Shown here in pieces: positions 1 through 40,200 of a DNA stretch of 64,000 bases (positions within the stretch are counted from its first letter, which is position 1; each line of letters starts with the position of its first letter). This stretch comes from a virus, in IMG/VR virus record IMGVR_UViG_3300045999_013278, positions 1 to 64,000 of that record; one strand, given 5' to 3'. The position numbers were made by a program, and so were the translations under genes. Under the pieces are notes generated by a model. That model made no database searches. It was not told the origin of the DNA and worked only from the letters and a program-made list of their open reading frames with translations.

Positions 1-540
1 ATGTTGGCGTTTTGGGACGGAAACAAAGAGGGCGGAACGGCAAATTGTATTGAGTATTGCAAGAAAAAAAATATCCCCTGGATTAATCTTTATCCCACTA
101 AAAAAATAATTAAGGAAGAGGAAGAAAAAATAATAATAGGTAATTTAAAAAACCTTTCCCCAAAGTTGGGGTATATGGATATAATTTGTGACAGGAGTAG
201 CGCATTAGGTAATCCCTACGTCCTAGAGAGGGAAGAAGATAGGGAATTATTGGTAAAGGCTTTTAGTTTGTGGCTAGACACTAATTTTCAAGTATACAAA
301 GAAGTCGGCGTAAGAAATGCAAGACTACTTCCGTCGCTGGTTAATCCTGGTTTAAAAATTGCCCCAACTTACAAGCATCCTACCGTAGATGAAATAGTCT
401 CAAGTTTTATCAACCTCTTAAGAATGGTAAATAACGGGCAAAAAATAAGGCTTTTGTGTCATTGTTCACCTAAGCTATGCCACACCTCTGTAATTAAAAA
501 TAAATTACTGGAAATAATAAACAGTTACCCCAAGAATTAA
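1..540 (+). CDS. 5'-truncated protein: YspA/SLOG-like C-terminal end fused to a DUF4326-like domain
   Basis: AFWDG..GGTANCIEY resembles the end of SLOG/YspA domains; DRSSALGNPY and LLCHCSPKLCH resemble DUF4326 motifs. Confidence 0.6.
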   Translation: MLAFWDGNKEGGTANCIEYCKKKNIPWINLYPTKKIIKEEEEKIIIGNLKNLSPKLGYMDIICDRSSALGNPYVLEREEDRELLVKAFSLWLDTNFQVYKEVGVRNARLLPSLVNPGLKIAPTYKHPTVDEIVSSFINLLRMVNNGQKIRLLCHCSPKLCHTSVIKNKLLEIINSYPKN

Positions 541-640
541 AATCAGACCTTAACTTATTTATTTTAAAGTTAAGTCCTGATTTTTTAAGGATAGATATCA
601 AAAAACCTTAATTAAATTAATAATTAAGGTTTTTTGATTT
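539..640. terminator. Two AT-rich inverted repeats between convergent genes
   Basis: aaaatcag..cttaactt/aagttaag..ctgatttt and atcaaaaaaccttaatt/aattaaggttttttgat. Confidence 0.55.
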
Positions 641-656
641 AAGGATTTTTAAAGTT

Positions 657-1715
657 TTACCAGTTTACCTTACCGCTGCCATTTTGTACGGGCGCAGGTG
701 GTGGGGTAGGTGCGACACTTCCCCATTGTGGAGGTTGTGCAATACTTTGTTGAGCCTGTTCTAAAGGAGTAGATTGGGGTAAGTTTTGGGCTTGCTGCTG
801 TTGGAATGCCAGGAATTGCGCCATCATTTCAGGACTTAAGCCACCAACTACGGGAGGGGTTTGTACTTGGGGCTGTTGAGATGGCTGGGGGGTAGTCTGA
901 GGTTGAGGTAAGTTTTGAGGCTGTTGATATTGTTGATAATTTTGGGGAATAGGTTGCTGGGGTTGAACTACAGGGGTTGGTTGTTGATATTGTTGGGGTA
1001 AAGATTGAAATTGTTGTCCCCACTGTTGTTGTACTGGAGGTTGGGGCTGGGGAGTGGGTGTAGTTTTTGGCTTAGGTTGTCTTGGTGTAAGTACAGCCTG
1101 TCCAGTTAGATGTTGATTAATTCTTACGATCACGCCAGCCGCAGCATTAGCATCCATGTGACCCTGTTCAGAAAAAACTCTCTCGCCGGAGTTTTTCCAA
1201 ACGTCAACTAGTAATACTTTTGTTGCGCCGATACTAGCCTTAGTAGGATCGTAAGAAGGCTTGTCAACTAATCGGGAAAGTGTGAAAGTGAATGGTTCTA
1301 ACAATTCATCTGGCGTTAATGAAGCCAGAGCCTTAAGGAATGACTCAGTAGCTTTATTTAACTTGCCGTTATCATCATCAGACCAACCCAGATAAATAAC
1401 GTAAGTTCTGTTGCCGCAGTCAATCCAAAATTCTAACTTCTGTTTGTCAACTCCACCTGTAGTAGTGTCAATTAAATTAAGAAACTTAAGCTTACATTTA
1501 ATCGCAGGTTGAGGAATAGGAACGCGGACGTTGTTATCTAAAGCAACTAAATAAGGCGGACGACCCGCGCTACATTCTTCGTAGCCAGGGAAAAGGTATT
1601 TTACGGCGTTTTGGTTTTCTGGGATTGGGCAAAAGCCCAATCCATTACTATTGCTGCCGCCACCTAAGACTTGGGTTAGTGCTTGGGCTAATTGTTGGAG
1701 TAGTTCGTTGGACAT
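657..1715 (-). CDS. Hypothetical protein with a globular N-terminal domain and long Gln/Pro-rich tail (start probably MSNELL)
   Basis: ORF track; the upstream ATG at 1751 overlaps the -10 box of the predicted promoter. Confidence 0.7.
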   Translation of the reverse strand: MSNELLQQLAQALTQVLGGGSNSNGLGFCPIPENQNAVKYLFPGYEECSAGRPPYLVALDNNVRVPIPQPAIKCKLKFLNLIDTTTGGVDKQKLEFWIDCGNRTYVIYLGWSDDDNGKLNKATESFLKALASLTPDELLEPFTFTLSRLVDKPSYDPTKASIGATKVLLVDVWKNSGERVFSEQGHMDANAAAGVIVRINQHLTGQAVLTPRQPKPKTTPTPQPQPPVQQQWGQQFQSLPQQYQQPTPVVQPQQPIPQNYQQYQQPQNLPQPQTTPQPSQQPQVQTPPVVGGLSPEMMAQFLAFQQQQAQNLPQSTPLEQAQQSIAQPPQWGSVAPTPPPAPVQNGSGKVNW

Positions 1716-1746
1716 AATCTTTAATTTTCTTGAGCTTATATAAAAT

Positions 1747-1775
1747 ATCATACTCTATCCCTATACCGTCGTCAA
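1747..1775 (-). promoter_or_regulatory. Sigma70-type promoter with phage motif TTGACGACGGTA
   Basis: TTGACG-17 nt-TATGAT on the minus strand. Confidence 0.8.
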
Positions 1776-1891
1776 GTAGTTTTAGTAAAATTATTTTAAA
1801 AGCATATACTTAATGTAATTGTAAAAAAAGAGGTATGGTAGTATGCAAGGACATTTTTTTAACCTTGTTAGGTGTCCTGGGCAAATAAACA

Positions 1892-1920
1892 ATAAAAAAC
1901 CCGCCATTTCTGACGGGTTG
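1892..1920 (-). terminator. Rho-independent terminator
   Basis: AACCCGTCA-GAAA-TGGCGGGTT followed by TTTTATT on the minus strand. Confidence 0.75.
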
Positions 1921-2041
1921 GGGTGATACTTTTTAAAATCCTTGTCATTCCAACTTCATAAGCTTCGCTAATTTCCGGTTTAATAGTTGAATATCAGTTT
2001 CATCCTTTAATCGGTAGATATCCTGATTCTGACAAAAATTT

Positions 2042-2229
2042 TCTCGCTATGCGAGAGGGATAAGACAAGAAAAGAGCAAAAGTGCATAGTGCTATTAAGT
2101 CCACGCCGCACCACTACATACAACCCGAAAACCGATATTGTAGCTGCCGTAGTCGAGATTGAAGTAGTCACGATAAGCAGAACGGCAATTTTCAGGATTG
2201 CTGCCCCACGAACCACCGCGCAGCAGCCT
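2042..2229 (-). other. Orphan DGR variable-region-like cassette (FGE/CLec C-terminus) with downstream hairpin
   Basis: Minus frame reads RLLRGGSWGSNPENCRSAYRDYFNLDYGSYNIGFRVVCSGAAWT* (stop 2095-2097); variable codons are NNC/NNT; hairpin TCTCGC-N3-GCGAGA at 2042-2056. Confidence 0.75.
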
Positions 2230-2243
2230 TCTGTGTAGACGCT

Positions 2244-2609
2244 TTATTCTATCCACTCTAAAAACTCTATTTTCATCTTTACAGATTGCTTGAACAGTCT
2301 GTAGTCAAACTTAGATGACAGCATCAGGTTCGATTCATAGGGCTTTATGCCTTTACACCAACTAACAGATATGTGAGGATATTTGTTAGCGCAGGGAATA
2401 TGATCAGGAAGTTTGACAGCTACAGCTTGTATTTTGCCGTTCCAAGCTTCATATAAAGTTGTGGCTTGGAACTCTAAACCCTCCCACTCTTTCCAGTCTT
2501 GGCGGCCAACCCCAAACTGGAGTGTTGTATGGTGGGGACTCCCCACGGGGTAGAGTGGGGAAATTATTAGGGGCGACTGGATAACACCCCACAGGATACC
2601 GTTAGTCAT
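2244..2609 (-). CDS. 2H phosphoesterase (cyclic phosphodiesterase-like)
   Basis: Two Hx(T/S) motifs, PHHTTL and PHISV, about 50 aa apart. Confidence 0.65.
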   Translation of the reverse strand: MTNGILWGVIQSPLIISPLYPVGSPHHTTLQFGVGRQDWKEWEGLEFQATTLYEAWNGKIQAVAVKLPDHIPCANKYPHISVSWCKGIKPYESNLMLSSKFDYRLFKQSVKMKIEFLEWIE

Positions 2610-2967
2610 CTAAAGACACTAACGAATATACAATCCTTGTTTTTATGTCGGTACTTTGTTCTGTTAGTGGTAAGTCCACTAACTCGGAATCAAACAAACT
2701 GACTTTGATTCCTAAGTTTGTTAACTTAATTAAAGTCAGTCCCGTGACTGAAGAGGTTATTATTTGATCGCCTATGTTTAAGGCGATTTTAATCGTGCGG
2801 ATTATATCTTTATCATCGTAACAATATTCTATCTCTTCGACAATTAAATAATTTCCTTCTTCCAAATAAAGGTCGAAAGTATTACCTTGACTTTCTCGCT
2901 CGTAGGAAAAGTCGGGATTAATCCCGAAAAGTTCGTTAAACTCTTGTGAAATAAAAGAATAAATCAT
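2602..2967 (-). CDS. Hypothetical protein (start MIYSF)
   Basis: AGGAG RBS at 2973-2977; the longer ORF start overlaps the ribozyme. Confidence 0.65.
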   Translation of the reverse strand: MIYSFISQEFNELFGINPDFSYERESQGNTFDLYLEEGNYLIVEEIEYCYDDKDIIRTIKIALNIGDQIITSSVTGLTLIKLTNLGIKVSLFDSELVDLPLTEQSTDIKTRIVYSLVSLDD

Positions 2968-2997
2968 TGTTACTCCTAAGTGGGTGTATGTAAAGTG

Positions 2998-3065
2998 ACT
3001 TCCCACGACTACCGGGGTGGTAGTTTCGGACGGTAGTCAGCCGTCCATCATCAGGTGGGTTGAAG
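2998..3065 (-). ncRNA. Type I hammerhead ribozyme
   Basis: CCCAC-CUGAUGA-U-GGACGG(cugacua)CCGUCC-GAA-ACUACC(acccc)GGUAGU-C-GUGGG; three stems pair; predicted cleavage after GUC between 3007 and 3006. Confidence 0.9.
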
Positions 3066-3386
3066 CTAAAAAGTAAAAGGTTGCCAGCCCGGCTTTATCC
3101 TACGCCTTTTGAGACTTTCTTCTTCTTCTTTTAATTGTTCCTCTAAGAAATGTCTGGAATAAGTATCCATCCCGTCTTCCATTACAAAGGTGTCGCCCAA
3201 GGGGGCGCGTTCTATTGGAGTCAGTGGTGTCAGCCACTCATGATCATGATCCACTTTTCTCAACTCCCCAGCAAATTTTAAGCTGGGTGACTTGTGCTGT
3301 CCTATGTAATCTTTATTACTTACTGTTACGTAAGCATACGAAATCAAATGATAAGTATATCCATCTACTACCAGTATTGTTTCCAT
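3066..3386 (-). CDS. Hypothetical protein
   Basis: 106-aa ORF in the minus-strand cluster. Confidence 0.65.
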   Translation of the reverse strand: METILVVDGYTYHLISYAYVTVSNKDYIGQHKSPSLKFAGELRKVDHDHEWLTPLTPIERAPLGDTFVMEDGMDTYSRHFLEEQLKEEEESLKRRRIKPGWQPFTF

Positions 3387-3407
3387 TTTATTTTGCTCTT
3401 TATTTAC

Positions 3408-3473
3408 AAAAGCAGTTTACCGACGTGCTTAGGTCGTTTGCAATCAGTTTGCGGATCTTTCATGATCCGCAAA
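3408..3473 (-). ncRNA. Predicted hairpin plus H-type pseudoknot in intergenic RNA
   Basis: UUUGCGGAUC/GAUCCGCAAA hairpin, then CGAC-cu-AAGCA-c-GUCG-guaaac-UGCUU. Confidence 0.5.
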
Positions 3474-3478
3474 TAACA

Positions 3479-3706
3479 CTAAAAGACATCTACAACAGGA
3501 CTGCTGTAGCCATAACGGGCTGACCAGCTTAAACCTGACCATGTAGTGACACGGGTGATTTTCCCGTTTTTCACTTCAAGTCTTGCTTGTTCTGTGGGAA
3601 CTTCACCAAAGTGAAACTCGTCATTTTTGGGAAAATCAGCACCCAGTAAAGTCTTGAGTGCTTCAGCACTTTTCCAATTAGCGATTATAAATTCTTTAAC
3701 GTCCAT
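3479..3706 (-). CDS. Hypothetical protein
   Basis: 75-aa ORF, CAGGA RBS, directly downstream of a promoter. Confidence 0.7.
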   Translation of the reverse strand: MDVKEFIIANWKSAEALKTLLGADFPKNDEFHFGEVPTEQARLEVKNGKITRVTTWSGLSWSARYGYSSPVVDVF

Positions 3707-3736
3707 GTCCTGTAATTTGTTTCACTCTATATTTAG

Positions 3737-3765
3737 AGTCTAGTAGACTTATTCCAATTTGTCAA
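3737..3765 (-). promoter_or_regulatory. Canonical sigma70-type promoter
   Basis: TTGACA-17 nt-TAGACT. Confidence 0.7.
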
Positions 3766-3974
3766 GTGGTTTTAGAAAATATTTTCAGGATAACCAATAA
3801 CGCCCTAGGATCACCATCTAGCAGTGCTTCTAGAAATTCCCCATACATAGGATAAATGTTTTCTTTTTGCCGAAAGAAAAAGCCGCCATTTATCAGCAAC
3901 TCGTCCCAGTGTGCTTTCTTGTCTCTGGGCAGACGACACTGGATCTTAACTCTATCTTCACTCGGTCGGGGCAT
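3762..3974 (-). CDS. Small putative ribbon-helix-helix DNA-binding protein
   Basis: N-terminal RVKIQCRLPRDKKAHWDEL strand-helix pattern; GGAG RBS. Confidence 0.45.
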   Translation of the reverse strand: MPRPSEDRVKIQCRLPRDKKAHWDELLINGGFFFRQKENIYPMYGEFLEALLDGDPRALLVILKIFSKTT

Positions 3975-4185
3975 TTGGGATTAACTCCACTAGATATATC
4001 TAAACTATAGACTATAGCAGAAAATCTGTAGATGATCCGACATTTGAATTGCGGCTTTAGTTTTGCTTAAATGCTATTCTCCATGTTGCGGATCAGCTTA
4101 CCAGATGGACAATCTCCATAATTATCTGTTTCAATGGGTAATGGGTATCGGCATTTTAGAGGCTTTTGCCCGTTTTTATATTTGA

Positions 4186-4362
4186 GCGCGATCGCAAAAT
4201 GGTAAAAATCTTAAAACGCAGAGCGTCATGCAATGGGGTCAGACAGTTTTCTTTACTATAAGGATTTTGACTGACGCTTCATATAACTTTACATATTTTA
4301 AAATCCTCCAAAACCTTACTGTATAAAGATTTGGAGGATTTAGTGTAATTTGCCTGACGCTT
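4186..4362. repeat. Dispersed repeat copy 1 (CGTCAGG-box family), just downstream of dnaE
   Basis: Homologous to 10755-10838, 28532-28603 and 57299-57460; contains AAATCCTCCAAA/TTTGGAGGATTT inverted repeat. Confidence 0.8.
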
Positions 4363-4367
4363 TTAGT

Positions 4368-7300
4368 TTACCAAAAACCTGCCGGCGCAGTTTGGGGATG
4401 TTCCCACATATTTACCTGACGTGGCGCGAACTCATATCCTAAAATTGTCATTTCTATGATTTTTGGCCTATCACCGTCACTTAAATTTACGGTTATTCCC
4501 GCCGTCAAACATGATGTTAAAAATTCTTTCCCCTGAGTGCCGTCACGCAAAAATACCTCCAAAACACACCCTGTTTTTTGCATAATTCTAAGGAAATGGT
4601 CAGTCCCTCCCGTCTGTTTGTTTGTGAGAACTTTATTTTGGATGATTTTGCCTGACGCTATGCGATCGCCATATTCCCCCTCAAAGGCTACTATTAAATT
4701 TAATTCATCTAAGCACTTTTTAACTTCATTTAAGCTTAGGACTGCTTTGCAAGTATTACTGACCTTACCGTTATATTCACCCTTAGTTACGTTAAAAGCT
4801 AAAGGTTTATATTCCAATACTGAAGTTTGGATTAGGGTATTAAACTTGGTTAATTCTTCGTTAAACACAGTAATGTCATGACTTTCCCCATTTTCATCAT
4901 TCACCATGAGAAATACCATTAAGTCGCCATTTCTTGTCGTAAAGGGCTTGTAATTCGTGACAATTCCCGTTACCCATTCACTTTGGGGTAAGTTTAAATT
5001 TAAGTTTTGGAACGGGTTGACGCTTACGACCGTCCCGATCAGATCCTTCTCCACTTCTACTATTTTTTCCGTAGTCCTTAAAGTAGGTTGGGGAAAATTA
5101 AAATCCTTACTCACAAGGTAAGTTTTAAATTCTTCTACGTTTAAAGTTACTTCCCCCTCTCCCCCGTTTTTTAATGCCCGACGTTTTAGTGTTCCCTTAA
5201 AATAACTTAAGGCTTTAAATAAAACCACTAAACTTTCTTCTGGAAAAATTTCATCCCCAAAAAACCCTAAATTATTTAAGCTAATTACTACACCTTTATC
5301 ACCACCACTTCTTAGGCAAAAATCCACAACGCCACTATAAGGGTAATTCTTAACTATTTCCTCCGCAACGCTTACGCCCAGTCCCTTAATATTAGCTAAA
5401 CCTAAATTAATTCCCTCTGGAGTTAGGAAACATTTAACCCTTAATTCTGCCCACATTTTAGGGAGGATTATATTAAAGTGGCGTTTTGTATTTTTAATCC
5501 ACTCTGCTGACTTCTCAAATGATTTTGAGGACACGGTAATTCCGGCTGCCCAAAATTCCCTCGGTGCATAAACCTTATAAAATGCACTAATTAAGGCTTG
5601 ATACCCATAAGCATAAGTGTGGGATTTATTAAAACTGTACTCAGCCGAAGCTTTAACTTCTGACCATAAAGCTAATGCTAATTCTTCACTTACCCCGCTA
5701 TGAGTAATTGCGCCCCCCACAAATTTTTCCTCTTGCGCGGGCATATCCTTAATTTTTTTCTTCCCAATTATTTTCCGTAAATCATCAGCTTCAGCTAAAG
5801 AATACCCTGAAAGTTTTTGAGCCATAAGCATAATTTCCTCTTGGTAAAGCATAATCCCAAAAGTATCTTTAAGCACTTCATCTACGATGGGGTGAACCTT
5901 TGGAGTACCCAAAACCCTGTTTCTGACATAAACCCTATCGCTGCCACTGTCTAAACATCCTGGACGATTTAGAGCGTTTACCGCCGATAAGTCTTCAAAG
6001 TTATTTGCCCCTATTTCTCGCAATAAATTTGAAGGAACTTTACCCTCCATCTGGAATACGCCAAAAGTATCCCCCTGTTTTAACATGGCGTAAACTTCGG
6101 GATAATTCCCTAACTCATTAATTACAGGAATTGTACAATTACTTTCTTTAAGTAATGCCTCTATTTCTAATTCTTGGGATAAACCTGTAAGTCCTAGAAC
6201 GTCAAATTTAATAACGCCCATTTCCTCAAGTTCGTCTTTATCGTAAACGGTGGTAATTTTTTCCTCGCCGCCGTCCCAGACTAGGGGAACGTAATCCTGT
6301 AATTCTTCCGAAATACAAATTCCGCCCGCATGAACTCCGCTTTGTCTTTCCCGTCCCTCTATAAATTGTGCTGCATGAGTTATGGCTATTCTTTCCTCTT
6401 CTGATAATTCATCGGAGTGGAAAAATTTATAAAATTCCCCACCCTCATCCACTAATAATTTACTAATTTTTGGAGGAACGCCCCTAATAGTTTTGAAATA
6501 CCTCTTGGATATTTCCGTAGCCTTACGCCAACTTAAGTTGTGTGTCCTGAAGGAATCTGCTAAGGCACTGCCAGCCGCACTTTTAGTGACTGTACCGACG
6601 GCTGCAACATTGTACCGACCCCATCTTTCCCTTAAATGTTCCACTACGGCATCCTTCCCTTCGCCGTTCATATCCGTGTCAATGTCGGGCATTGCTTTAC
6701 GCCCAGGATTGAGGAATCGCTCGAACATTAGCCCGTGTTTGATTGGGTCAATATCAGTAATTTTTAAACAGTAAGCCACAATTGACCCAGCCGCAGAACC
6801 CCGTCCTTTCCCAACTTTATGGCCAATTCCCCTCACAAAACTACAAAAATCTTCCACGATTAAAAAATAATCTGCGAAACCCATTTCTGAGATTACTCTC
6901 ATTTCATAGTCCAGTCGTTCCCATAACCCAGGACTTAAAGCTTCGGGAGGGTAACGGTTAAACATCCCGTCAGCGCACTTTTGCTTAAATATTGCCTCGG
7001 CATTGGGAGAAAATTTAATTGGCTTAACAACGTTAAATAAGCTGTAATCCTCAAACTTATCCGCGATTTTTAGGGTATTATCTAGGGCTACGTTAATCTC
7101 CTCTGACGATAACCCAGAATTGTCATAGAAGTGTTGGAAAATTTCTTCCCTCGTTTTTACATACTCCTCACCGGTGTACTCGAAGTTATTAAGCCTTTCC
7201 GATCCTAAAGTGGCATTACCCTTCATGCCTATACTTAACGCGAGTGTTTGACTAAACCAATCTTCCTTACCCAAGAAGTGAGCGTCGTTGGTAATTATTC

Positions 7301-7910
7301 TCGCAACATTTAATTTTTTACCTAACTCGACAATTTTTTGAGTATGACTTGGCCAACTTTTCCTTATGCCGTAGTGGCAGTGCAATTCTAGATAAAGCCT
7401 GTCCTTAAAGACGGCGCGGTATTTAATGATCCACTTCTTAGCCCTAAGCTCATCTCCCGCGCTAAGGCTTTGGTTTAGCTCGGAGCTAATGCAGCCACTT
7501 AAAATTATCAACCCAGCATTATGGGAGAAAATTTGAGCATTAGTAACACAAGGCTTTTTAGCCTTCCCGCGTACTTGCTCTAAACTGGCTATCGTGCTTA
7601 AACGGCATAAGTTTTTGTAACCCTCTAGGTTAATTGCAATAGCGGTTAAGTGGTAATAGTCTTTTCCGTTGGCGGTTTTTTCCCCACCCTCTTCCATTAC
7701 GTATAACTCGCAGCCTATCAGGTGCTTAATCCCCTCTTTTCGGCACTCCTTAAATAGCTCAAAAGCCGCAGACATACTCCCATGATCGGTAATGCAAGCT
7801 GCGGGTAAGCCCTGTACCTTACTAAACTCAACTAATCTCTTAACGTCTATGTCACCATCAAAGTTTGAGCCTCTGCGGGTGTGGTTATGAAGAGATATGT
7901 ACTGCTGCAT
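4368..7910 (-). CDS. dnaE: DNA polymerase III alpha subunit (family C)
   Basis: PHP motifs (HNHT, ITDHG, TNDAH), GRGSAAGS, FERFLNPGR, MPDIDTD, KFDVLGL, YSFNKSH, C-terminal OB fold. Confidence 0.97.
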   Translation of the reverse strand: MQQYISLHNHTRRGSNFDGDIDVKRLVEFSKVQGLPAACITDHGSMSAAFELFKECRKEGIKHLIGCELYVMEEGGEKTANGKDYYHLTAIAINLEGYKNLCRLSTIASLEQVRGKAKKPCVTNAQIFSHNAGLIILSGCISSELNQSLSAGDELRAKKWIIKYRAVFKDRLYLELHCHYGIRKSWPSHTQKIVELGKKLNVARIITNDAHFLGKEDWFSQTLALSIGMKGNATLGSERLNNFEYTGEEYVKTREEIFQHFYDNSGLSSEEINVALDNTLKIADKFEDYSLFNVVKPIKFSPNAEAIFKQKCADGMFNRYPPEALSPGLWERLDYEMRVISEMGFADYFLIVEDFCSFVRGIGHKVGKGRGSAAGSIVAYCLKITDIDPIKHGLMFERFLNPGRKAMPDIDTDMNGEGKDAVVEHLRERWGRYNVAAVGTVTKSAAGSALADSFRTHNLSWRKATEISKRYFKTIRGVPPKISKLLVDEGGEFYKFFHSDELSEEERIAITHAAQFIEGRERQSGVHAGGICISEELQDYVPLVWDGGEEKITTVYDKDELEEMGVIKFDVLGLTGLSQELEIEALLKESNCTIPVINELGNYPEVYAMLKQGDTFGVFQMEGKVPSNLLREIGANNFEDLSAVNALNRPGCLDSGSDRVYVRNRVLGTPKVHPIVDEVLKDTFGIMLYQEEIMLMAQKLSGYSLAEADDLRKIIGKKKIKDMPAQEEKFVGGAITHSGVSEELALALWSEVKASAEYSFNKSHTYAYGYQALISAFYKVYAPREFWAAGITVSSKSFEKSAEWIKNTKRHFNIILPKMWAELRVKCFLTPEGINLGLANIKGLGVSVAEEIVKNYPYSGVVDFCLRSGGDKGVVISLNNLGFFGDEIFPEESLVVLFKALSYFKGTLKRRALKNGGEGEVTLNVEEFKTYLVSKDFNFPQPTLRTTEKIVEVEKDLIGTVVSVNPFQNLNLNLPQSEWVTGIVTNYKPFTTRNGDLMVFLMVNDENGESHDITVFNEELTKFNTLIQTSVLEYKPLAFNVTKGEYNGKVSNTCKAVLSLNEVKKCLDELNLIVAFEGEYGDRIASGKIIQNKVLTNKQTGGTDHFLRIMQKTGCVLEVFLRDGTQGKEFLTSCLTAGITVNLSDGDRPKIIEMTILGYEFAPRQVNMWEHPQTAPAGFW

Positions 7911-7983
7911 ATTTTTAAAAATGTTTTGTGTAAATTTACCCTAGCACACTCTACCGTCGTTAGGCAACTATTTTTATTTACAA

Positions 7984-8019
7984 AAACTACTTGACATCCC
8001 TACCGTTGTCAAGTAGGAT
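7984..8019. promoter_or_regulatory. Overlapping opposite-strand promoters forming an inverted repeat
   Basis: Plus TTGACA-17-TAGGAT; minus TTGACA-17-TAGTTT; arms CTACTTGACA/TGTCAAGTAG; extra motif variant at 7952-7964. Confidence 0.7.
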
Positions 8020-22651: not shown

Positions 22652-23911
22652 TTAATTTAATTTAATTCTCGCTACGATTGCCAAAGATCGTCTACTGAGT
22701 TGATCAAGTGATAGACTCAACCTTCCCGATACTTTTCTTAAAATATTAGCTGCTCCGTTCAAATCTGCATTTACGAATGAACCATCGCCCGATTCATACA
22801 ATCCACGCTTAACACGCTTTCCTGATGCTTTCCACCCGTCTGGTTTTTGACCATAAACAGGTAGGGAGTCTCCATCGAGAAAACTAGCTTTTGATGTATA
22901 AGCCTCTTCGGTTTCTTGAAATCTAATACCGTGTAAATCGCATAGTTGCATCAGCCGGGTTTTGAGTTTACCTAACGGCATTTGGACAAACTTTTGATTA
23001 TTAATTCGCCCCATGTTAGCGTTAGATTTAAAACCCTCGTTCCAACCAATAACTAATGTACCAATGCCGTATTTTAAGCAATGATCAATAATTAATTTTG
23101 CAGCTTTATTAACACCATCCCGCATTTGATGGTTACGTTTACGGGTTACACAGTCTAACCAATTGTCCCAATAATCCCCCGGTTTCCCTTCTTTTCGTGT
23201 TGATACTTTTTTATTCCAAAGCTGGTTCATTGACTTCATCGAACGGGCATCAATCAAGAGGGAATTACCCAATGTATCAACACAAGCTGCTAAATTATCA
23301 GCCGTTCCCAAGTCAATAGATAGAGCTTGATTAATGTCTAAATCATGCTGTTGTTTCTCAACTTCGTAAGACATCTCTAGATAAAAAGCACCGTTTTTAG
23401 GTAGGATAGTAAACTCCTTAACATGAGCTATATCTAAATTTGACGGCATCGGTAGAAAAAATTCAGAAATTCCAAACCATCTTTTAACCGTTAGTCCCAA
23501 CGAAAATCTAAGTTGTCCATTAACTAGAGTTGGTTTCTGTCCTCCACTATGAGGATAAGCAACCTTGAAAAGTTTAGAACCTGTTAGATAGCCGGGTACT
23601 TTAGGCTTAAAGTGTAATTGTCCTTTGATAAACAAAGAACGTAATTCTTTAAAAGATTTGAAGGCTTCTGTTACAGATAATAAAGTTTGTTGTGCGGGGA
23701 TAGATGGCATCGATTGAGCAACCATAGTTTTAGACACTGAAGGCTCGTAAATCAAGTCGAACTTACCCGTTAACAACTTTCCAGTTTTTAAAAATGTTTG
23801 TCTAGCGAAATAAACACCACTGTTATACAGCTTCCCTGACTGCTGACAGAGATATTCTAATACTGCCTTTGTTTCATTATCGGGAGACAACAAAACCTGT
23901 TGTACTCCCAT
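22652..23911 (-). CDS. tnpB: TnpB RNA-guided endonuclease (no Zn-finger cysteines seen)
   Basis: LYNSGVY HTH, SIDLG, EEAYTSKAS, NADLNGAANI; start may extend to 23965. Confidence 0.92.
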   Translation of the reverse strand: MGVQQVLLSPDNETKAVLEYLCQQSGKLYNSGVYFARQTFLKTGKLLTGKFDLIYEPSVSKTMVAQSMPSIPAQQTLLSVTEAFKSFKELRSLFIKGQLHFKPKVPGYLTGSKLFKVAYPHSGGQKPTLVNGQLRFSLGLTVKRWFGISEFFLPMPSNLDIAHVKEFTILPKNGAFYLEMSYEVEKQQHDLDINQALSIDLGTADNLAACVDTLGNSLLIDARSMKSMNQLWNKKVSTRKEGKPGDYWDNWLDCVTRKRNHQMRDGVNKAAKLIIDHCLKYGIGTLVIGWNEGFKSNANMGRINNQKFVQMPLGKLKTRLMQLCDLHGIRFQETEEAYTSKASFLDGDSLPVYGQKPDGWKASGKRVKRGLYESGDGSFVNADLNGAANILRKVSGRLSLSLDQLSRRSLAIVARIKLN

Positions 23912-24020
23912 TGCTTTTTTATTTTTTGCCACCAAGTTACGATTTATGAGAAGTTGACTTCTCAAGAATAATTGATTAAGCTAGTATTGTCAATAGCTAT
24001 CAAGAAAACAACAAGAGAAT

Positions 24021-24422
24021 ATGTTAACGCAAGAAGACTATAAAACCCACAACCACGTTAAATTCCTGGTTAATTACCATTTTGTTTGGATACCTAAACG
24101 ACGGAAAAAAGTTTTAGTAGGAGAAATAGCAACAAGAGCGAGACAGATTTTTGCTGAACTGGCTATAGAAAAAGGTTGGGATATTTTAGCTTTAGAAGTA
24201 GCTCCAGACCATATCCACTTATTTATTAGCGTTAAGCCCACAGATACCCCACATTTAGTTATCAAGGCATTTAAAGGTCGTTCTAGCTTCTACTTGAGAA
24301 AAGAATTTCCCCAATTAAAAAAACTACCGTCTCTTTGGACAAGTAGTTATTTTATAAGCACCGCAGGGAATGTTAGTAGCGAATCCGTGAGGAGATATAT
24401 TGAAGACCCGCATCACGGTTAA
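24021..24422 (+). CDS. tnpA: IS200-type Y1 transposase
   Basis: YHFVWIPKRR, PDHIHLF (HUH), KGRSS, LWTSSYF, YIE. Confidence 0.95.
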   Translation: MLTQEDYKTHNHVKFLVNYHFVWIPKRRKKVLVGEIATRARQIFAELAIEKGWDILALEVAPDHIHLFISVKPTDTPHLVIKAFKGRSSFYLRKEFPQLKKLPSLWTSSYFISTAGNVSSESVRRYIEDPHHG

Positions 24423-34256: not shown

Positions 34257-37200
34257 TTACCTATCATATAAACCACCTCTATTTAAGCTACCTCCAGGAC
34301 GACGCTCTTGCTTGATTGTCTCCTGGATTTTTGCTTCTAAAGCTTTTTCAAACAAGGCTTTGTTAATGTTGCCGTTGCCACCCTCGCTATTATTAATGTT
34401 CACGTTAGGCGTAATGTTAATCGTATCTCCACTTCTTCCTACGTTATTAATATTCCCTAAACCTTCACCTATCATACCGCCGCTACTGAAACTCTCCAAT
34501 TTATTACTACTGTTTAGTTGATTCCATAACTTAGTTTCTTTTGGAGTTAAAACCCGTTCACCTTCGTTAGCGATAATTAAGCGTGGGTTAAACCCACTTA
34601 TCGCCCTTTCCTTGTTTAATAAATCCCCAACCATTCCGCCTTTAGCAAAACTAGGGAGCGTAGCTGAACCAAAGTCTAATCCGCCGTCTAAACCACCTAA
34701 GCTAAAACCATCGCTAAAGTCAAATGCTCCGCTAGAACTAAATGGGATTGCGCTACTGCCTTCGAGTATTCCAAAACTACTCTCTCCAAACGCTCCAAAA
34801 ATACTATCTAGCACTCCGCCATCTTTGCTACCTGCGCCCATAATATTTTGCAAGACTAAAGCCGCTTGTTGTAGCATTGTAGCGGACACACTTAGATTAG
34901 CTCCCGCGTTATTTAAAGCGATCGCGCCCACGTCTTTAGCTTTATTGCCAAAAATAATTTCAGTTAATTTACCAAATAGTTGGTTAGACAGTTCCTTACT
35001 TGCAACAGCAGCTAAATTGCTTAAAATACTTTTTGCAATCTCGCTAAAAGCATCGACTATACTTCTTTTACTCAACTCCGTCTTTTTCTTTTCTAAGTCT
35101 CTCTGCGCTCTATCTAATTCTTTTAGTTGTTTGTTATTGCCAGAATTTTGGTATGCGTTTCTTACTTCCTGAATATTACCGGACGTATTCATTATAATGT
35201 CGCGGCGTTTCTTAGCAATCTCATCTAGGGATTTATTAATATCCTGTAAATCGCCAGCGTTTTTATTAACAGAGTCGTTCATGAAAAATCCCTTTAGGAT
35301 ATTGTCAAAATCTCCTTTAATTCCGCTAATAGCCTCGGTGAACATATTAAATTCTTTCGCAACATTGTCTAGTTTTAACTCGTTTAGCTTAAGTAAATTT
35401 TCACTAAGTACAGATATTTCTTCTGCTGAATAATTACTTGATAATCCTAGTTTAGCTATTTCGTTTTTTTCCTTCTCAAAATCCATCTTAATTTGTGATA
35501 AAAGCTGTGCTTTTTGCAATTCCTTGTCTCTAACTCCGAACAAACCCCGACCTCTTATTATCTCGGAAGAAATTGCACTACCGGATGAATTTAATTTTTC
35601 CATCCTGCCGAGTTCAATGCCTCTATTTGTAATCGGCGCGAGCTTAGTTTGGTAAGAATTTTCTGCGTCAAGGTTAGATTTTTCTTTTCCGTAATTACGG
35701 AAAGCTTTTAGTCGTTCTATTAATTTTTCTTGTGGACTAAGTAAGGCGTTACCTTGAATTTCCAATAATTGTTTCTTGTAAGCATTAGTTAGCTCGTTAG
35801 TTTTTATTGTTAATTCATTGGTTAAGCTGACTAAACTAACCATCCCATCCTTATTGTCAATCGCAAACCGTTCATTGTCTAGTTGCAATGATTTCATTTG
35901 CGAGGCTTGGATAGTTTGCGATTTAGTTAATTCAATGCCTCTATTTGTAATCGGGGCGAGCTTAGTTTGGTAAGAATTTTCTGCGTCAAGGTTAGATTTT
36001 TCTTTTCCGTAATTACGGAAAGCTTTTTGTCGTTCTATTAATTTTTCTTGTGGACTAAGTAAGGCGTTACCTTGAATTTCCAATAATTGTTTCTTGTAAG
36101 CATTAGTTAGCTCGTTAGTTTTTATTGTTAATTCATTGGTTAAGCTGACTAAACTAACCATCCCATCCTTATTGTCAATCGCAAACCGTTCATTGTCTAG
36201 TTGCAATGATTTCATTTGCGAGGCTTGGATAGTTTGCGATTTAGTTAATTCGTCGTTAGCTTGCTTAATTCGCTTAACTGTATCGGCATAATTAAAGTTA
36301 AGATCAACGCCCTCTCTTTTAACAGAATTAACATTGAGAATGGCTTTAAATTCCTTCTGAAAAGCTGCTTCACTCATGTTACCGCCCTTACCTCCGCCAT
36401 CATAATAACGTCTTTGGAGGTCTAGTAATTGTTGGTATTGGTCACGGGTTAATTCTAGTAAGCTAATATTTCTTTGAAGTGATGGAATTTTTAAAACCAA
36501 CGGATTTAGCGGGTCAATTTCCTCAAGTTTTTGAACTAACTGTAACTGTTGTTGTAGTTGTTCAATAACTTTTGATTGTTGCGATATATCCTGCTCGCTT
36601 AATCTGAAAAACTCTTTTTTGTCAAAATCTTTCATTGACGCTTTGAGGATGCTATCAATATTGGATTTTAAAAATTTCAAGCTATTTTTAGCTTCTGCAT
36701 TTTTAAAAGCTGTAGCTTTAAAACTTAGATCGTTTGTCTGGATTGCGGCTGCGGCTAATCTCGGATCATTAGGAAATCTCTTCATTGCCAGATTAAATGC
36801 GGCTTGTAAGTCCGGTTTTTGCGCGATCGCTCCATCCGTTTCTCTAACAATTTGCTCTAACAACTCAACATCTTTCTCTAATTTGCGGCGTAATTCATTA
36901 AATTGGAGACTAAACATATCCGCATTACTCATGGTAGGAGATAAACCTTTTAACACCGTTATTCTAGTCCCTAGAGTAGAATCTTTCGTACTGCTGATGT
37001 CTCCTATCGCGGTTTTTTGAGAGGACATAATAAGCCTGTAAGCCTCTAGCCTTTGTTTTAGCTCATTTTCTCTGATTTGTTCAGGATTTAGGTTGCTGTT
37101 AGTTTGATTAGTTTGATATTGTTGGGCAGCGGTGTTTAATTTAAGTCTACTAGCTTGTGTTACCACTTCCTGCATTTGGTTGGGTTGAATACTTCCGCCT

Positions 37201-40200
37201 TGCATAACAATCTGCACCAATTGTCGCGCTGTATTGCCGTACCGATTTTCTGCTTTGGGGAGGTAATTACCTAGCGTAATATCACCATCCCCTACTCCTA
37301 ATGATGCGTTAGGATTCCCCGCAAAAACGGTAGATAAAACTTTTCGGAAGGAGTCTAGCTTTTGCCCTCTACTGTTCTGTTTTAAGTATTTCTGAACAAA
37401 GACTAATTGCTCTTGTGGACTCATTTGAGACAGAGCATCTATGTTTGTACCCAGTCCTCTAGCCGTAGCGGGCATGAACTGAATTAAACCTGTTGCGTTT
37501 GTGCGTTTGTTCCTAGCAGATGGCGAAAGTGTACCACCTGTTTCATACAGCATCGTTTTAAGTAGGTCTTCAGGGTTTGCTCCTACGCTTTGAGCTATTT
37601 TAGCCACGCTTTGCAGGAACTTGGTATCTATACGTGGATCTAGCCCTGGAACAAGCGGAACTGATTGGCGTTGTTTTGTTGGCCGTTGTTGAGGCATCGG
37701 CCAATCTGCTACCCTGTTCAGCCTCTTGTTGTCTTGTGTGGTATCAACAACCTTTTTGGTTGTATCCAATTTAATCCCAGGTACTTTAAAAGTTTTACCT
37801 AACTGGGTAGTTGGGTTTATCCTTTGACCGTTGATCGTTACCTCCCAATGTAAATGCGATCCTGTGCCACGCCCAGTGCTTCCAACTTTACCTATTACAT
37901 CACCTTGTTGTACAACGTCCCCAACCTTTTTAAGTAATTCAGATAAGTGAAAAAAGCGGTTTACAACTTTTTTACCTTCTGCGGTGATGGTTTCAACTTC
38001 GACCATATTGCCCGCACCACCATTCCAACCACCTTTAGATGTGATAACCGTGCCTGTCAGTGGTGCTTTAATTGGTGTTCCTGTAGCGTCTTCAAAATCA
38101 ACACCGTTGTGCATTTTTCTAGTGCCGTCCAATGGGTCTGTACGCATTCCGTACTTAGATGTTACGCGCCCCGGCGTAGGTCTAAGCAAAGTTTGATTAA
38201 CAGTCTGTAAATTATCCAATCCGTAGAACTTTTTGACAGCCCCTAACGGATTACTAACGAACTCTTTAGCACCCTGCTCTAACTGTTGCCCAGCTTTTTC
38301 CCCAAACACCGTGCTAACCGCCGATTGAACACCGCCCGCTAAATTTTGTAACAAGCCTTGTCCGGTAGCCAGGGAAGCTAACCAGTTGGAGGTTTTTATT
38401 CCCATATCAGCGATCGCAGTCCCCACGCGATCAAAGCCGTTCTCAAAAGACTTAACTAAATCTGCAAACTTAGTACCAAGACCTTCTATCCATGAGTTGC
38501 TAGTTTTACTTAAGTCTTTAATACTATCTTCAGCTTTTTTAGTTGCGTCTACAACACTGTTAGATAAGTTATTTATATTCTTATTAATTTCATCAACCGT
38601 CCTGTTTACGTTTTTAAGACTGAGATTAAAGTTATCGGCAATACTAGAATCTATCGGGATAATTTTTCCTGGTAAACTCCGTTGTAGTTCTATAGCTTGT
38701 AGCTGAATATCTTGGACGTTATTCTGGTAGTCAATCCTCTGTTTTCTTGCTTCTAGTTGTTGTTTCTCTATTTCGGTTGTTTGGGAAATTACATTAATAA
38801 TTCCCTCAATAAACTGAGTGTAGATATTGTCCCCAGCACCAATTAAAGCCTCTCTAAGTTTATTCTGTACTTTAGAGTTTTCAAAGGTCTTTTGTGCTTT
38901 CTCAAATTCAATACCCACAGCTTGAGATTCTCGAACGGCTGCGCGATAATAGTCGGTGACTTGCTTTGTTTGTTGGTAGAGGCTTTGGATTAAGTTATAT
39001 TTCTGCTCTGCAATTTGTTGTTGCATATCAACAGTTTGGATTTGCATTTCCTTAACTTTTATAAAGCCACTTAAAATCTCTTTTTCTTTACTTCCATCAA
39101 TACTTCTTTCTTGTGCAGCCTTTAAGGTGTCTATACCGCTTCTTTTATTTAAATTAAGTGTGCCTAAGACTCTATCTAAATCATTAACTTCCAATTGAGC
39201 GGACATCTCTTGGATTTGTTTTAAATTATCGGCAATTTTACCAGTCAGAGTGGCTTGAGTTTTTAAGTTGTTCGTATATTCCAGTTGCCCTGGTAAAACG
39301 TCCCCACTGCTGCCAAGGTTAAATAAATTAGTTTTCTCTAAACTTAATGCTGTATCTCTATATTGTCTTAGATCGTTAAACTTAGCTTCTAAGTTCCTTA
39401 TTTCAATTGCAAATTTTTGCATTTCTGTTAAGGAATTTTTAATAGCCTTAGTCATCTTGTCTTGTTCTTGAATAACTGTAGCTAAATCTTGTTCAGTTAC
39501 CTTAATTATTTTATTAATGTCGTCAATTTCACTTTGGTAAAGTTTGGGATTTTTCTTTAGTTCTTCCCAATACTCCAAATAAGTTTTTAAAGTTTCTACT
39601 TGTTTGTCTAAATTAGCTTTAGTTCCGCCAAACAATTCTAAGGGCTTTTCTCTCACCCCGCTTATTCTCTTTTCCCATTCTTGCAGAGATCTCAACGCTT
39701 CACTATTGCCGGGATCGTTGGCAATAATCGCCCGACGTTCCATTTTAATATTATCCAAAGATTTGTCTAGGAATTGAATGTCTTGGATAGCGTTTTTAAT
39801 AGCGGGAGAGTTACTATCTTTCAAAATATCGAAAGTGTTTTGTTGCCCAATAGTTGTTTGTTTGGCACTATCCTCCATTTGTTTTATTAGTTTTTTTGTA
39901 TCGTTATCAAATGGGTTAAGCGTAAATCCTTCTCTAAATGCTGAAAAGTTATCACGGCTAACTTTAGAGGATGGATTTAATAATTTTCTTTGTTCATTAA
40001 TAGACTGAGTAACGTTTCTAGTCTGTTCGCCAATTGCGCCGCTGCTATCCTTGAAATTCATCATTGTTTCATCAATAGCTTTCATCGCCATTGATAAAAC
40101 AAACATCTGAGCGGCTAAAGTTGCAATACTTTGACTCATTCCCAGCAATGCACCCTTAGCCCCTCCCGCAGAGAATAAAATTCCTTTTAAATACGTCGCA

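Follow-up and report, generated by a model that had tools for sequence, protein, structure and literature searches.

The segment considered here lies in a 64,000-nt stretch of viral DNA, comprising bases 1-64000 of a linear virus record of 72,697 bp that is estimated to be 65% complete; this whole stretch is referred to below as the window. The PHROGs matches among the 56 window ORFs scanned (a set that leaves out one ORF of 4255 aa and the ORFs beyond 64000) include central-fibre-J-type tail proteins, a head-protease fusion, DNA polymerase III alpha, a helicase, ribonucleotide reductase, dCMP deaminase, methyltransferases and an IS200/IS605 TnpA/TnpB pair. As these 56 ORFs contain no integrase, but only the IS200/IS605 TnpA and TnpB, a reading of the segment as an attP or integration site was ruled out. 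The features of the locus, in the direction of the minus strand, are as follows:

2244..2609, minus strand: 2H phosphoesterase gene of 121 aa (Pfam tRNA_lig_CPD, 1.1e-7), with its stop codon TAA at 2246-2244.
2095..2256, minus strand: GTG-started ORF of 53 aa, judged to be a non-gene, the tail of a lost FGE frame.
2227..2234, minus strand: deletion junction 2234/2233; 2234 is the last base common with the 2H-FGE spacer of sibling phages, and 2233-2227 read CAGAAGG.
2101..2226, minus strand: variable region (VR) of 126 nt, homologous to the host template repeat (TR) of the DGR locus L069 (7038-7163).
2057..2094, minus strand: pyrimidine-rich 3'UTR tract directly after the stop codon, common to host target 3'UTRs and to the sibling phage contig L077.
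2032..2056, minus strand: hairpin TCTCGC-ATA-GCGAGA (2056-2042) with the tail AAATTTTTGT (2041-2032), terminator-like in a consensus scan.
1999..2033, minus strand: host-type dispersed repeat GTCAGAATCAGGATATC.ACCGATTAAAGGATGAA, present also after host target genes in the loci L041 and L058.
1898..1919, minus strand: stronger terminator-like hairpin of 9 pairs with a T-run, in phage-specific sequence.

Sites within the VR are numbered as p = 2227 minus the window position. Homologues of the 2H protein occur at 86% identity in two sibling viral contigs, and gp125 of the Aphanizomenon phage vB_AphaS-CL131 is another homologue, which ends at the same ...EFLEWI(A) and stop; the locus ties the phage to Dolichospermum-type hosts. 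A near-identity search with window positions 1-8000 gave no match in a phage collection from which records very near to the window may have been excluded, and an exact search of viral contigs for the VR of the remnant returned 0 matches.

The minus-strand frame 2256..2095 is open for 53 codons and reads VDRIKRLHRRLLRGGSWGSNPENCRSAYRDYFNLDYGSYNIGFRVVCSGAAWT up to its stop. The Pfam FGE-sulfatase profile (PF03781) aligns with residues 8-46 at profile positions 213-254 of 255 (E=4.4e-4); its score of 20.4 bits, under the curated cut-off of 23.3 bits and hence below that of a full domain, is what would be expected of a piece of just 45 codons. A search of longer proteins with the remnant (490 matches at E<=0.001; 541 candidates) recovered FGE-domain proteins of Nostocales (Dolichospermum/Anabaena), in many cases as fusions with a kinase, caspase, TIR or HEAT domain. 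The pattern LRGGSW..P..CRSA.R recurs in 116 of the 120 matches listed, and the C-terminal end is GFRVVCSGAART in 111 of these 120. An initial, sequence-only reading of the DNA had recognized here a DGR-type VR of the FGE/C-type-lectin kind, and Pfam, the residue pattern and the TR footprint described below agree that this VR is real; the codons that it had singled out as variable (GGC AGC; GAC TAC TTC; TAC GGC AGC TAC) fall on AAC codons of the host TR. Thus, the comparisons support the identification of the remnant as a DGR-type VR, ultimately of host (Nostocales) origin. The VR of the remnant terminates no intact ligand-binding ORF of the CLec/FGE fold, there being 45-46 codons left; it does terminate such an ORF in the siblings L077 (260 aa) and L079 (542 aa).

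Among the 20 congeneric genomes grouped around a Dolichospermum genome, 19 contain DNA matching the fragment, at up to 87% identity. One of these Dolichospermum-group genomes encodes, at locus L069, a complete DGR consisting of two FGE targets, namely a 973-aa protein (OAA-lectin + FGE) and a 274-aa stand-alone FGE protein, bAvd (4e-21), an RT (RVT_1, 4e-23) and a TR with many AAC codons, located immediately behind the RT. Aligned with this TR over 126 nt, the remnant has mismatches at 13 of 33 adenines and at 5 of the 93 other sites, the latter being p57, p69, p93, p108 and the boundary base p126. The comparison with the VR of the sibling L077 is sharper still: 20 of the 33 TR-adenine sites differ, as against 3 of the 93 others (Fisher p=8e-12), and the non-A divergence of 3.2% equals the background of 2.6% in the 2H flank. 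The remnant therefore carries the adenine-specific footprint of a host-type TR, with which it forms a VR/TR pair mismatched at TR adenines.

It had been proposed that a genuine target should lead to a TR from which it differs at adenines only. The adenine bias is indeed present, whereas every TR found has at least 4 non-A mismatches: none with zero such mismatches exists among the TRs of the 20 genus genomes and 201 family genomes, and the best shows 4 within the first 125 positions and a fifth at p126. Two of these differing sites are polymorphic among cellular copies: of the 24 host VRs of this type, 17 have A at p108 and 5 have T at p69. Two other species possess TR alleles that read GTG or GTA at p108. 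The changes at p57 (CGC>CGT; 0 of 24 host VRs) and p93 (ATT>ATC; 1 of 24) are both synonymous transitions, nearly private to the remnant, and fit drift after the last rewriting and not recent homing. The change of AART to AAWT is located on the last TR adenine, p124.

The absence of an RT or TR from the window, asserted from the letters alone, holds for the entire 72,697-bp record (65% complete): an RVT_1 profile had no match in it, and an adenine-tolerant slide gave, as the best non-self placement, at least 46 non-A mismatches over 162 nt. The record likewise contains no second FGE match, and a complete DGR cassette, with RT, Avd and TR on one replicon, was not encountered in this 65%-complete sequence. 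Neither an RT nor a TR was found in the sibling records G021 and G022; in IMG/VR, 0 contigs have the exact TR pattern, and there is no close RT, the best being 37-38% identical to the host DGR RT. At least 7 different VRs are carried by the phage-type genes and proteins (L077, L079, P0048, P0059, P0077, P0136 and this remnant). From the adenine footprint, in conjunction with the lack of an RT or TR in the 65%-complete record, we infer that the VR diversity of these phages was written by a cellular DGR. An origin of the fragment from TR cDNA was ruled out, since the homology to host loci goes beyond the TR part on both sides, upstream by at least 7 nt and downstream by about 100 nt; the DNA hence descends from a target-gene locus.

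The host character of the segment continues past the VR. The VR/TR homology ends at GGTGCGGCG(A/T)G, a GC-rich boundary, and the pyrimidine tract beyond it has an 8-nt indel relative to L077, with the host locus L042 showing the same shorter form. A CTCGC/GCGAG stem follows cassette-proximal host target genes, with the loop ATA in L069, L040 and L058 and GTA in L041, and is also found in the sibling L077; the 3'UTR of the 274-aa gene of L069 combines a CTCGC-ATA-GCGAG hairpin with a nearly identical pyrimidine tract. The host-derived DNA ends at about 1999, which is where the contigs of all four metagenome runs considered below leave the phage sequence. The tract and the hairpin with 6 bp and a 3-nt loop are thus as the sequence-only reading had described them; the hairpin looks like an intrinsic terminator and differs from those described for phage DGR targets. 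No Rfam family matched the host DGR locus L069 at the gathering score. Folding of the 126-nt 3' region gave a z-score of 0.64, which indicates no unusual overall structure, with only the small hairpin in the centroid, and the terminator scan reported 2 sites against a shuffle mean of 0.7. One might suppose that the 3'UTR was kept for its hairpin and T-run, as the terminator of the 2H transcript, with the VR as a mere passenger. The hairpin passes the terminator scan, and most of the host paralogue 3'UTRs shown have a differing inverted repeat and T-run at the same relative place, as would suit such a role. However, a stronger terminator stands 140 nt further on (1919-1898), and the sibling L075 and CL131 do without the whole segment, so that we consider this explanation unlikely.

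The history of the fragment is recorded in sibling phages, which were found via the 2H protein and then via a 32-nt stretch of the 2H end. Behind the 2H stop region ...GAATAAAGCGTCTACA, the contigs L074/L076, L077, L078 and L079 all continue with AGGAATAAAATACGC-ATG into an FGE gene, which starts at its own ATG, 15 nt past the 2H stop codon common to all. This gene is complete in L077, with 260 aa (FGE-sulfatase, 5.4e-59), and in L079, with 542 aa and a tandem FGE-FGE architecture, and the contigs of L074/L076 and L078 end within it. The 2H flank of the window is 97.4% identical to L077 and L079, with 12 mismatches in 464 positions against L079 (2.6%). From ...GTCTACA to the start of the VR (CTGCTG) the spacing is 666 nt in both L077 and L079 and 7 nt in this phage, and these remaining 7 nt, CAGAAGG, are the last 7 pre-VR nucleotides of L079. 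Past its VR, L077 matches the window again through the 3'UTR, the hairpin and the phage backbone (2094-1985), the differences 3' of the VR being the stop codon (TGA vs TAA) and the 8-nt indel. The disparity of 666 and 7 nt at the same 2H flank identifies the fragment as the leftover of a deletion that removed 659 nt of the FGE gene and spared 7 nt, the VR and the 3'UTR. The comparisons thereby show that a host-derived gene stood behind the 2H gene and that a 659-nt deletion then left the VR and 3'UTR. With high confidence, we regard the feature as the deletion remnant of a phage-borne, host-derived DGR target gene, that is, as a pseudogene.

These findings also bear on the earlier suggestion of captured host DNA, of which the host origin is upheld and direct capture is not, given the full-length gene at the same place in the siblings. 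That the 3' end of a host target was captured directly by illegitimate recombination would be compatible with the homology to DNA of host VR loci from about 2233 to about 1999, at up to 87% identity. Against it stand the four sibling contigs, in which the gene occupies an identical insertion point and shares its left junction (two complete, two running off the contig), the identical right flank in L077, and the presence of full-length and deleted forms together in the metagenome runs X3 and X5; direct capture is consequently very improbable. An FGE gene is missing at this position from the relative L075 and from CL131, which points to the locus behind the 2H gene as an accessory hot spot; even on a conservative view, it is a place where this phage group preferentially gains, fuses and loses genes. 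The start MKNIFVEDLGNG marks the phage-type proteins, being present in 0 of 25 distinct EDLGNG contexts from cellular loci, and further phage-type proteins with it include P0048, P0059, P0077, P0136 and others.

Two ways in which the remnant might be translated had been put forward, and neither is supported. One is a 53-aa peptide initiated at GTG 2256, the other a fusion of 2H with the VR, by slippage to -1 at G-TTT-TTA. In their favor, no stop codon interrupts the frame over its 53 codons, and the VR is indeed read in -1 relative to 2H. However, the frame has no ATG anywhere in its sequence and no Shine-Dalgarno-like motif before the GTG; it overlaps the 2H gene end, staying open by chance across the 2H stop codon, and is otherwise part of the 260-aa gene of the siblings. 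With a G ahead of TTTTTA, the heptamer does not conform to X-XXY-YYZ. The same EFLEW-coding sequence exists where an intact FGE gene follows, as well as in CL131, where 2H ends alike, and the siblings keep the same 2H stop with a separate FGE ATG. Furthermore, 45 codons are too few for the FGE/CLec fold of about 240 residues (Pfam positions 4-254 in the siblings). Translation in either form is accordingly the least credible of the alternatives, and can be set aside with near certainty.

A more substantial question is how the phage VRs came to differ. Nine proteins of one phage-type cluster have a single VR and differ elsewhere, which implies that rewriting in phage populations is at most occasional. 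The protein P0132 begins with host EAD1-FGE sequence that is identical to P0155 and switches, in a conserved stretch, to the phage-type scaffold of P0127; it carries exactly the VR peptide of this remnant, with R in place of W. P0059, P0066 and P0081 share one other VR across different architectures. Such shared VRs on differing fronts point to recombination or to assembly chimeras, either of which could move VRs without homing. It could hence be that the VR differences of the phages, that of the deletion allele included, arose by recombination or gene conversion with host targets or co-infecting phages, and that the DGR acts only on the host copies. Such exchange is suggested by the mosaicism of the phage FGE genes between siblings, by the switch from host to phage type in P0132 together with the VR of the remnant, by the identical VR peptides on phage-type and host-type proteins (P0059, P0066, P0081), and by the occurrence of the siblings' pre-VR sequence in host proteins among the matches to the remnant. 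Conversely, the homology available upstream of the VR in the deletion allele is short, 28 nt made up of CAGAAGG and a 21-nt invariant block, and the chimeric proteins may be artefacts of metagenome assembly, as the paralogues have long identical stretches. We regard recombination as a credible explanation that nevertheless falls appreciably short of being probable.

Metagenomes provide a view of the remnant in populations. Twenty lake-water runs, drawn from 18 studies, contain the stretch, 17 of them with half or more of its words, and four runs (X3, X5, X7 and X17) were compared as assembled contigs; host VR copies confound the depth over 2010-2264. Contigs break at 2234 in three of the four (X3, X5 and X17), and in X3 and X5 the loose end at 2234 reads into the intact gene start, which indicates that full-length and deleted forms co-occur in these two runs. 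X3 also has a contig identical to the window over 2050-2200, at a depth of 1143 compared with 1843 for the backbone. In X7, one contig (record 28; 530 nt) aligns without gaps to 2100-2629 at a depth of 11.1, that of the backbone being 11.1-11.9, and shows 22 differences: it has the same deletion junction with a different VR. It departs from the window at the TR-A sites p65, p74, p80, p83 and p124; p57 and p124 have a TR-like base in every X7 contig, and depth arithmetic assigns the TR base to p93 of record 28. Across the four runs, 19 of the 22 variable places within 2100-2226 are TR-A sites, with host VR copies mixed in. As the same junction is joined to another VR in X7, the observations fit an orphan VR that was replaced after the deletion, whether through homing of the host DGR in trans or through recombination.

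This brings up the possibility that the orphan VR is a still active remote target, into which cDNA of the host DGR homes on phage DNA during infection, an extension of the account given above. In addition to the junction with another VR in record 28, the TR bases of that contig at p57 and p93 are as fresh homing would give, the cis elements are retained in the remnant, and no viral contig in IMG/VR has the TR or a close RT. Moreover, in phage BPP-1, according to Guo et al. 2011 (PMC3240598), the sequence upstream of the VR is dispensable for homing, and the IMH with the hairpin suffices to retarget a heterologous gene, which makes a substrate devoid of the scaffold plausible. Set against this are the nature of the X7 evidence, a single contig from a k-mer assembly in which 7 of the 22 differences are placeable, the two private non-A changes in the window VR, which suggest drift, and the stability of one VR over nine phage-type proteins. 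Continued activity is in our estimate a candidate that stays somewhat short of an even chance. The notion of a remote target for a host DGR, advanced at the outset, accordingly remains a live reading, though the data do not separate homing from recombination; between rewriting on phage DNA by the host DGR and recombination, we judge the odds to be about even.

On the basis of these comparisons, the following history emerges. The ancestor of this siphovirus-like phage, whose hosts are cyanobacteria of the Dolichospermum/Aphanizomenon type, carried, right behind its 2H gene, a host-derived stand-alone FGE/C-type-lectin gene, a copy of the variable-protein gene that adjoins the host DGR cassette, together with its 3'UTR. 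The deletion of 659 nt, with a microhomology of at most 1-2 nt, took away the ribosome-binding site, the start codon and about 215 scaffold codons. What was left comprises 7 nt and the 126-nt VR, followed by the stop codon and the conserved 3'UTR, and then by the hairpin and T-run. The remnant yields no protein, and its hairpin and T-run may still help to terminate the 2H transcript. It keeps the 5' block that is invariant, the GC-rich boundary at the 3' end and the elements downstream, and this retention, along with the dispensability of upstream sequence in BPP-1, suggests that it is probably still a homing substrate, and probably a passive, selectively neutral one for host DGR cDNA. The deletion genome with the other VR in a second sample would fit this passive role, with recombination as the alternative.

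In its widest form, the proposal is that a host DGR homes across replicons into an infecting, apparently lytic phage, a family of Dolichospermum/Aphanizomenon phages having taken over the cassette-proximal variable gene of its host along with the homing signals. The virus would then draw diversity from the mutator of its host, possibly to produce an effector-less CLec decoy directed at the DGR-diversified host sensors that are linked to EAD1, caspase or kinase domains, and homing signals alone would suffice, with the remnant being rewritten after the loss of the gene. We offer this only tentatively, as an attractive possibility that we do not yet hold to be probable. Known DGR targets are situated on the replicon of the RT or remotely in the same cellular genome, and phage DGRs bring their own RT. 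Should the proposal be true, the cis requirements of homing could be read from a natural minimal substrate, in which the VR is flanked by 7 nt on one side and some 100 nt of 3'UTR on the other, and the suggestion that Nostocales DGR targets are antiviral sensors would gain a testable viral counter-move. The value of the remnant is as a pointer to a phage family with a target gene compatible with the host DGR.

The literature consulted offers several points of comparison. Full-text searches of articles brought up no described case of a target gene on a phage that is diversified by the DGR of its host, and the text of the CL131 paper has no mention of formylglycine, sulfatase, retroelement, DGR or reverse transcriptase. 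Microcystis phages Ma-LMM01 and MaMV-DC encode a full-length stand-alone FGE-sulfatase domain (gp062/ORF63L, termed 'kinase'; 6.9e-64); its C-terminal VR-like stretch is the most divergent between the isolates and is followed by an inverted repeat. It differs in belonging to another host genus and in its VR sequence. BPP-1, as described by Guo et al. 2011 (PMC3240598), likewise has a phage VR at a gene 3' end, a GC-rich 3' boundary and a downstream inverted repeat. However, it encodes avd, TR, brt and a tail-fibre target, whereas the present record has no RT or TR and the domain is of the cytoplasmic FGE type; and its hairpin has 7-10 bp with a GRNA loop at 4-34 bp from the VR, in contrast to the 6 bp, ATA loop, distance of about 44 nt and T-run found here.

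In Vallota-Eastman et al. 2020 (PMC7517822), a study that deals with 76 remote targets and in which no cyanobacterial DGR is definitively assigned to a prophage, the targets resemble the remnant in having an FGE-type CLec VR at the gene 3' end with cis elements behind it and the TR and RT elsewhere. The architectures of the host family also match, with fusions to kinase, caspase, EAD1 and other domains. Yet those targets lie in the cellular genome of the DGR itself, unlike the remnant, which is on a phage genome and lacks the scaffold. For Thiohalocapsa PB-PSB1, Dore et al. 2024 (PMC10907252) describe trans activity within one genome, with targets that have no local RT or TR and VRs that match a distant TR at non-adenine sites, as in the present case. 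One of these trans targets no longer varies, and the targets are proposed to be antigen sensors. The PB-PSB1 loci all reside on one bacterial chromosome, whereas here donor and target are on separate replicons, those of a host and its virus.

The phage DNA that carries the variable region (VR) remnant of a diversity-generating retroelement (DGR), downstream of the 2H phosphoesterase gene, includes sequence derived from the host, the far end of which is a repeat dispersed in Nostocales:

Window 1999-2033 and L069 (the Dolichospermum-group locus with a complete DGR) 5880-5930: Nostocales dispersed repeat, GTC.GAATCAGGAT.TC....GATTAAAGGATGAA

In the host DGR the same repeat occurs between avd and the RT gene, and it is also found behind several host target genes.

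What follows the 2H gene in a sibling phage contig, L079, is an intact gene encoding two FGE domains in tandem:

L079 (metagenome contig, 90.9 kb), locus coordinates 338-1966, (-) strand: FGE-FGE tandem fusion gene, 542 aa

In the first VR of this gene the GGTGCGGCG boundary is gone and a linker (SAMCSKWNRLSSEEQQKFMNLEEIKDLALE...) leads into the second FGE domain, which ends in ...GFRVVCSAMCSKLK. Stand-alone database proteins of the P0007 group (266 aa) have their first residues exactly at MNLEEIKDLALE, and the FGE-FGE arrangement therefore exists in both fused and split forms.

On the host side, conservation extends past the template repeat (TR) itself, with about 150 nt directly 3' of it being retained across L069 and a series of TR loci:

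L069 7164-7330 and TR loci L149-L167: conserved post-TR element, including ...CCAGAACTGGCGGGTGGGAATTCGTCGGGCG...

A 301-nt query comprising the TR and this tail had matches at E<=1e-50 in 42 of the 201 family genomes sampled, and an Rfam scan of L069 gave zero matches at the gathering score. The conserved tail probably represents the clade's DGR spacer RNA, lying outside any curated family. Within the genus, a strong match through the TR and the downstream element was seen in only 3 of 20 genomes (G001, G010 and G014), with weaker matches, at 70% identity, in G006 and G009; VR-like copies were present in 19 of the 20. Furthermore, the single-contig genome G006 has a 273-aa target with neither RT nor Avd inside the 12 kb examined. 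Given these distributions, orphan DGR targets may exist in many strains.

In the lake-water metagenome run X3, one contig (depth 588) joins window position 2475 to 2882, skipping 406 nt. It would represent a variant in which the 2H gene lacks its front part and the 134-aa ORF preceding that gene is mostly missing. In run X5 the sequence after 2475 differs. Two further features of the window are:

Window 22652-24422: IS200/IS605-type pair, TnpB-like (-), 437 aa, and TnpA (+), 133 aa, the latter matching phrog_2577 at 4e-44; surrounded by phage replication genes
Window 34257-47024, (-) strand: single open frame of ~4255 aa; the product is presumably a giant protein of structural or tape-measure-like type

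Some isolate phages of Microcystis carry an FGE gene under another name:

L109 (MaMV-DC) 2468-3268; also L147 (MaMV-CH01) and L148 (Ma-LMM01): FGE-sulfatase gene, annotated 'kinase' in Ma-LMM01 and MaMV-DC

In these two phages it encodes an FGE-sulfatase domain that is full-length and stands alone (6.9e-64), and the stop codon is followed by an inverted repeat, CCCCTCTAC...GTAGAGGGG. Between Ma-LMM01 and MaMV-DC the gene diverges most in its C-terminal VR-like stretch, where mismatch counts per 50 nt are 13 and 8, compared with 0-5 across most other parts.
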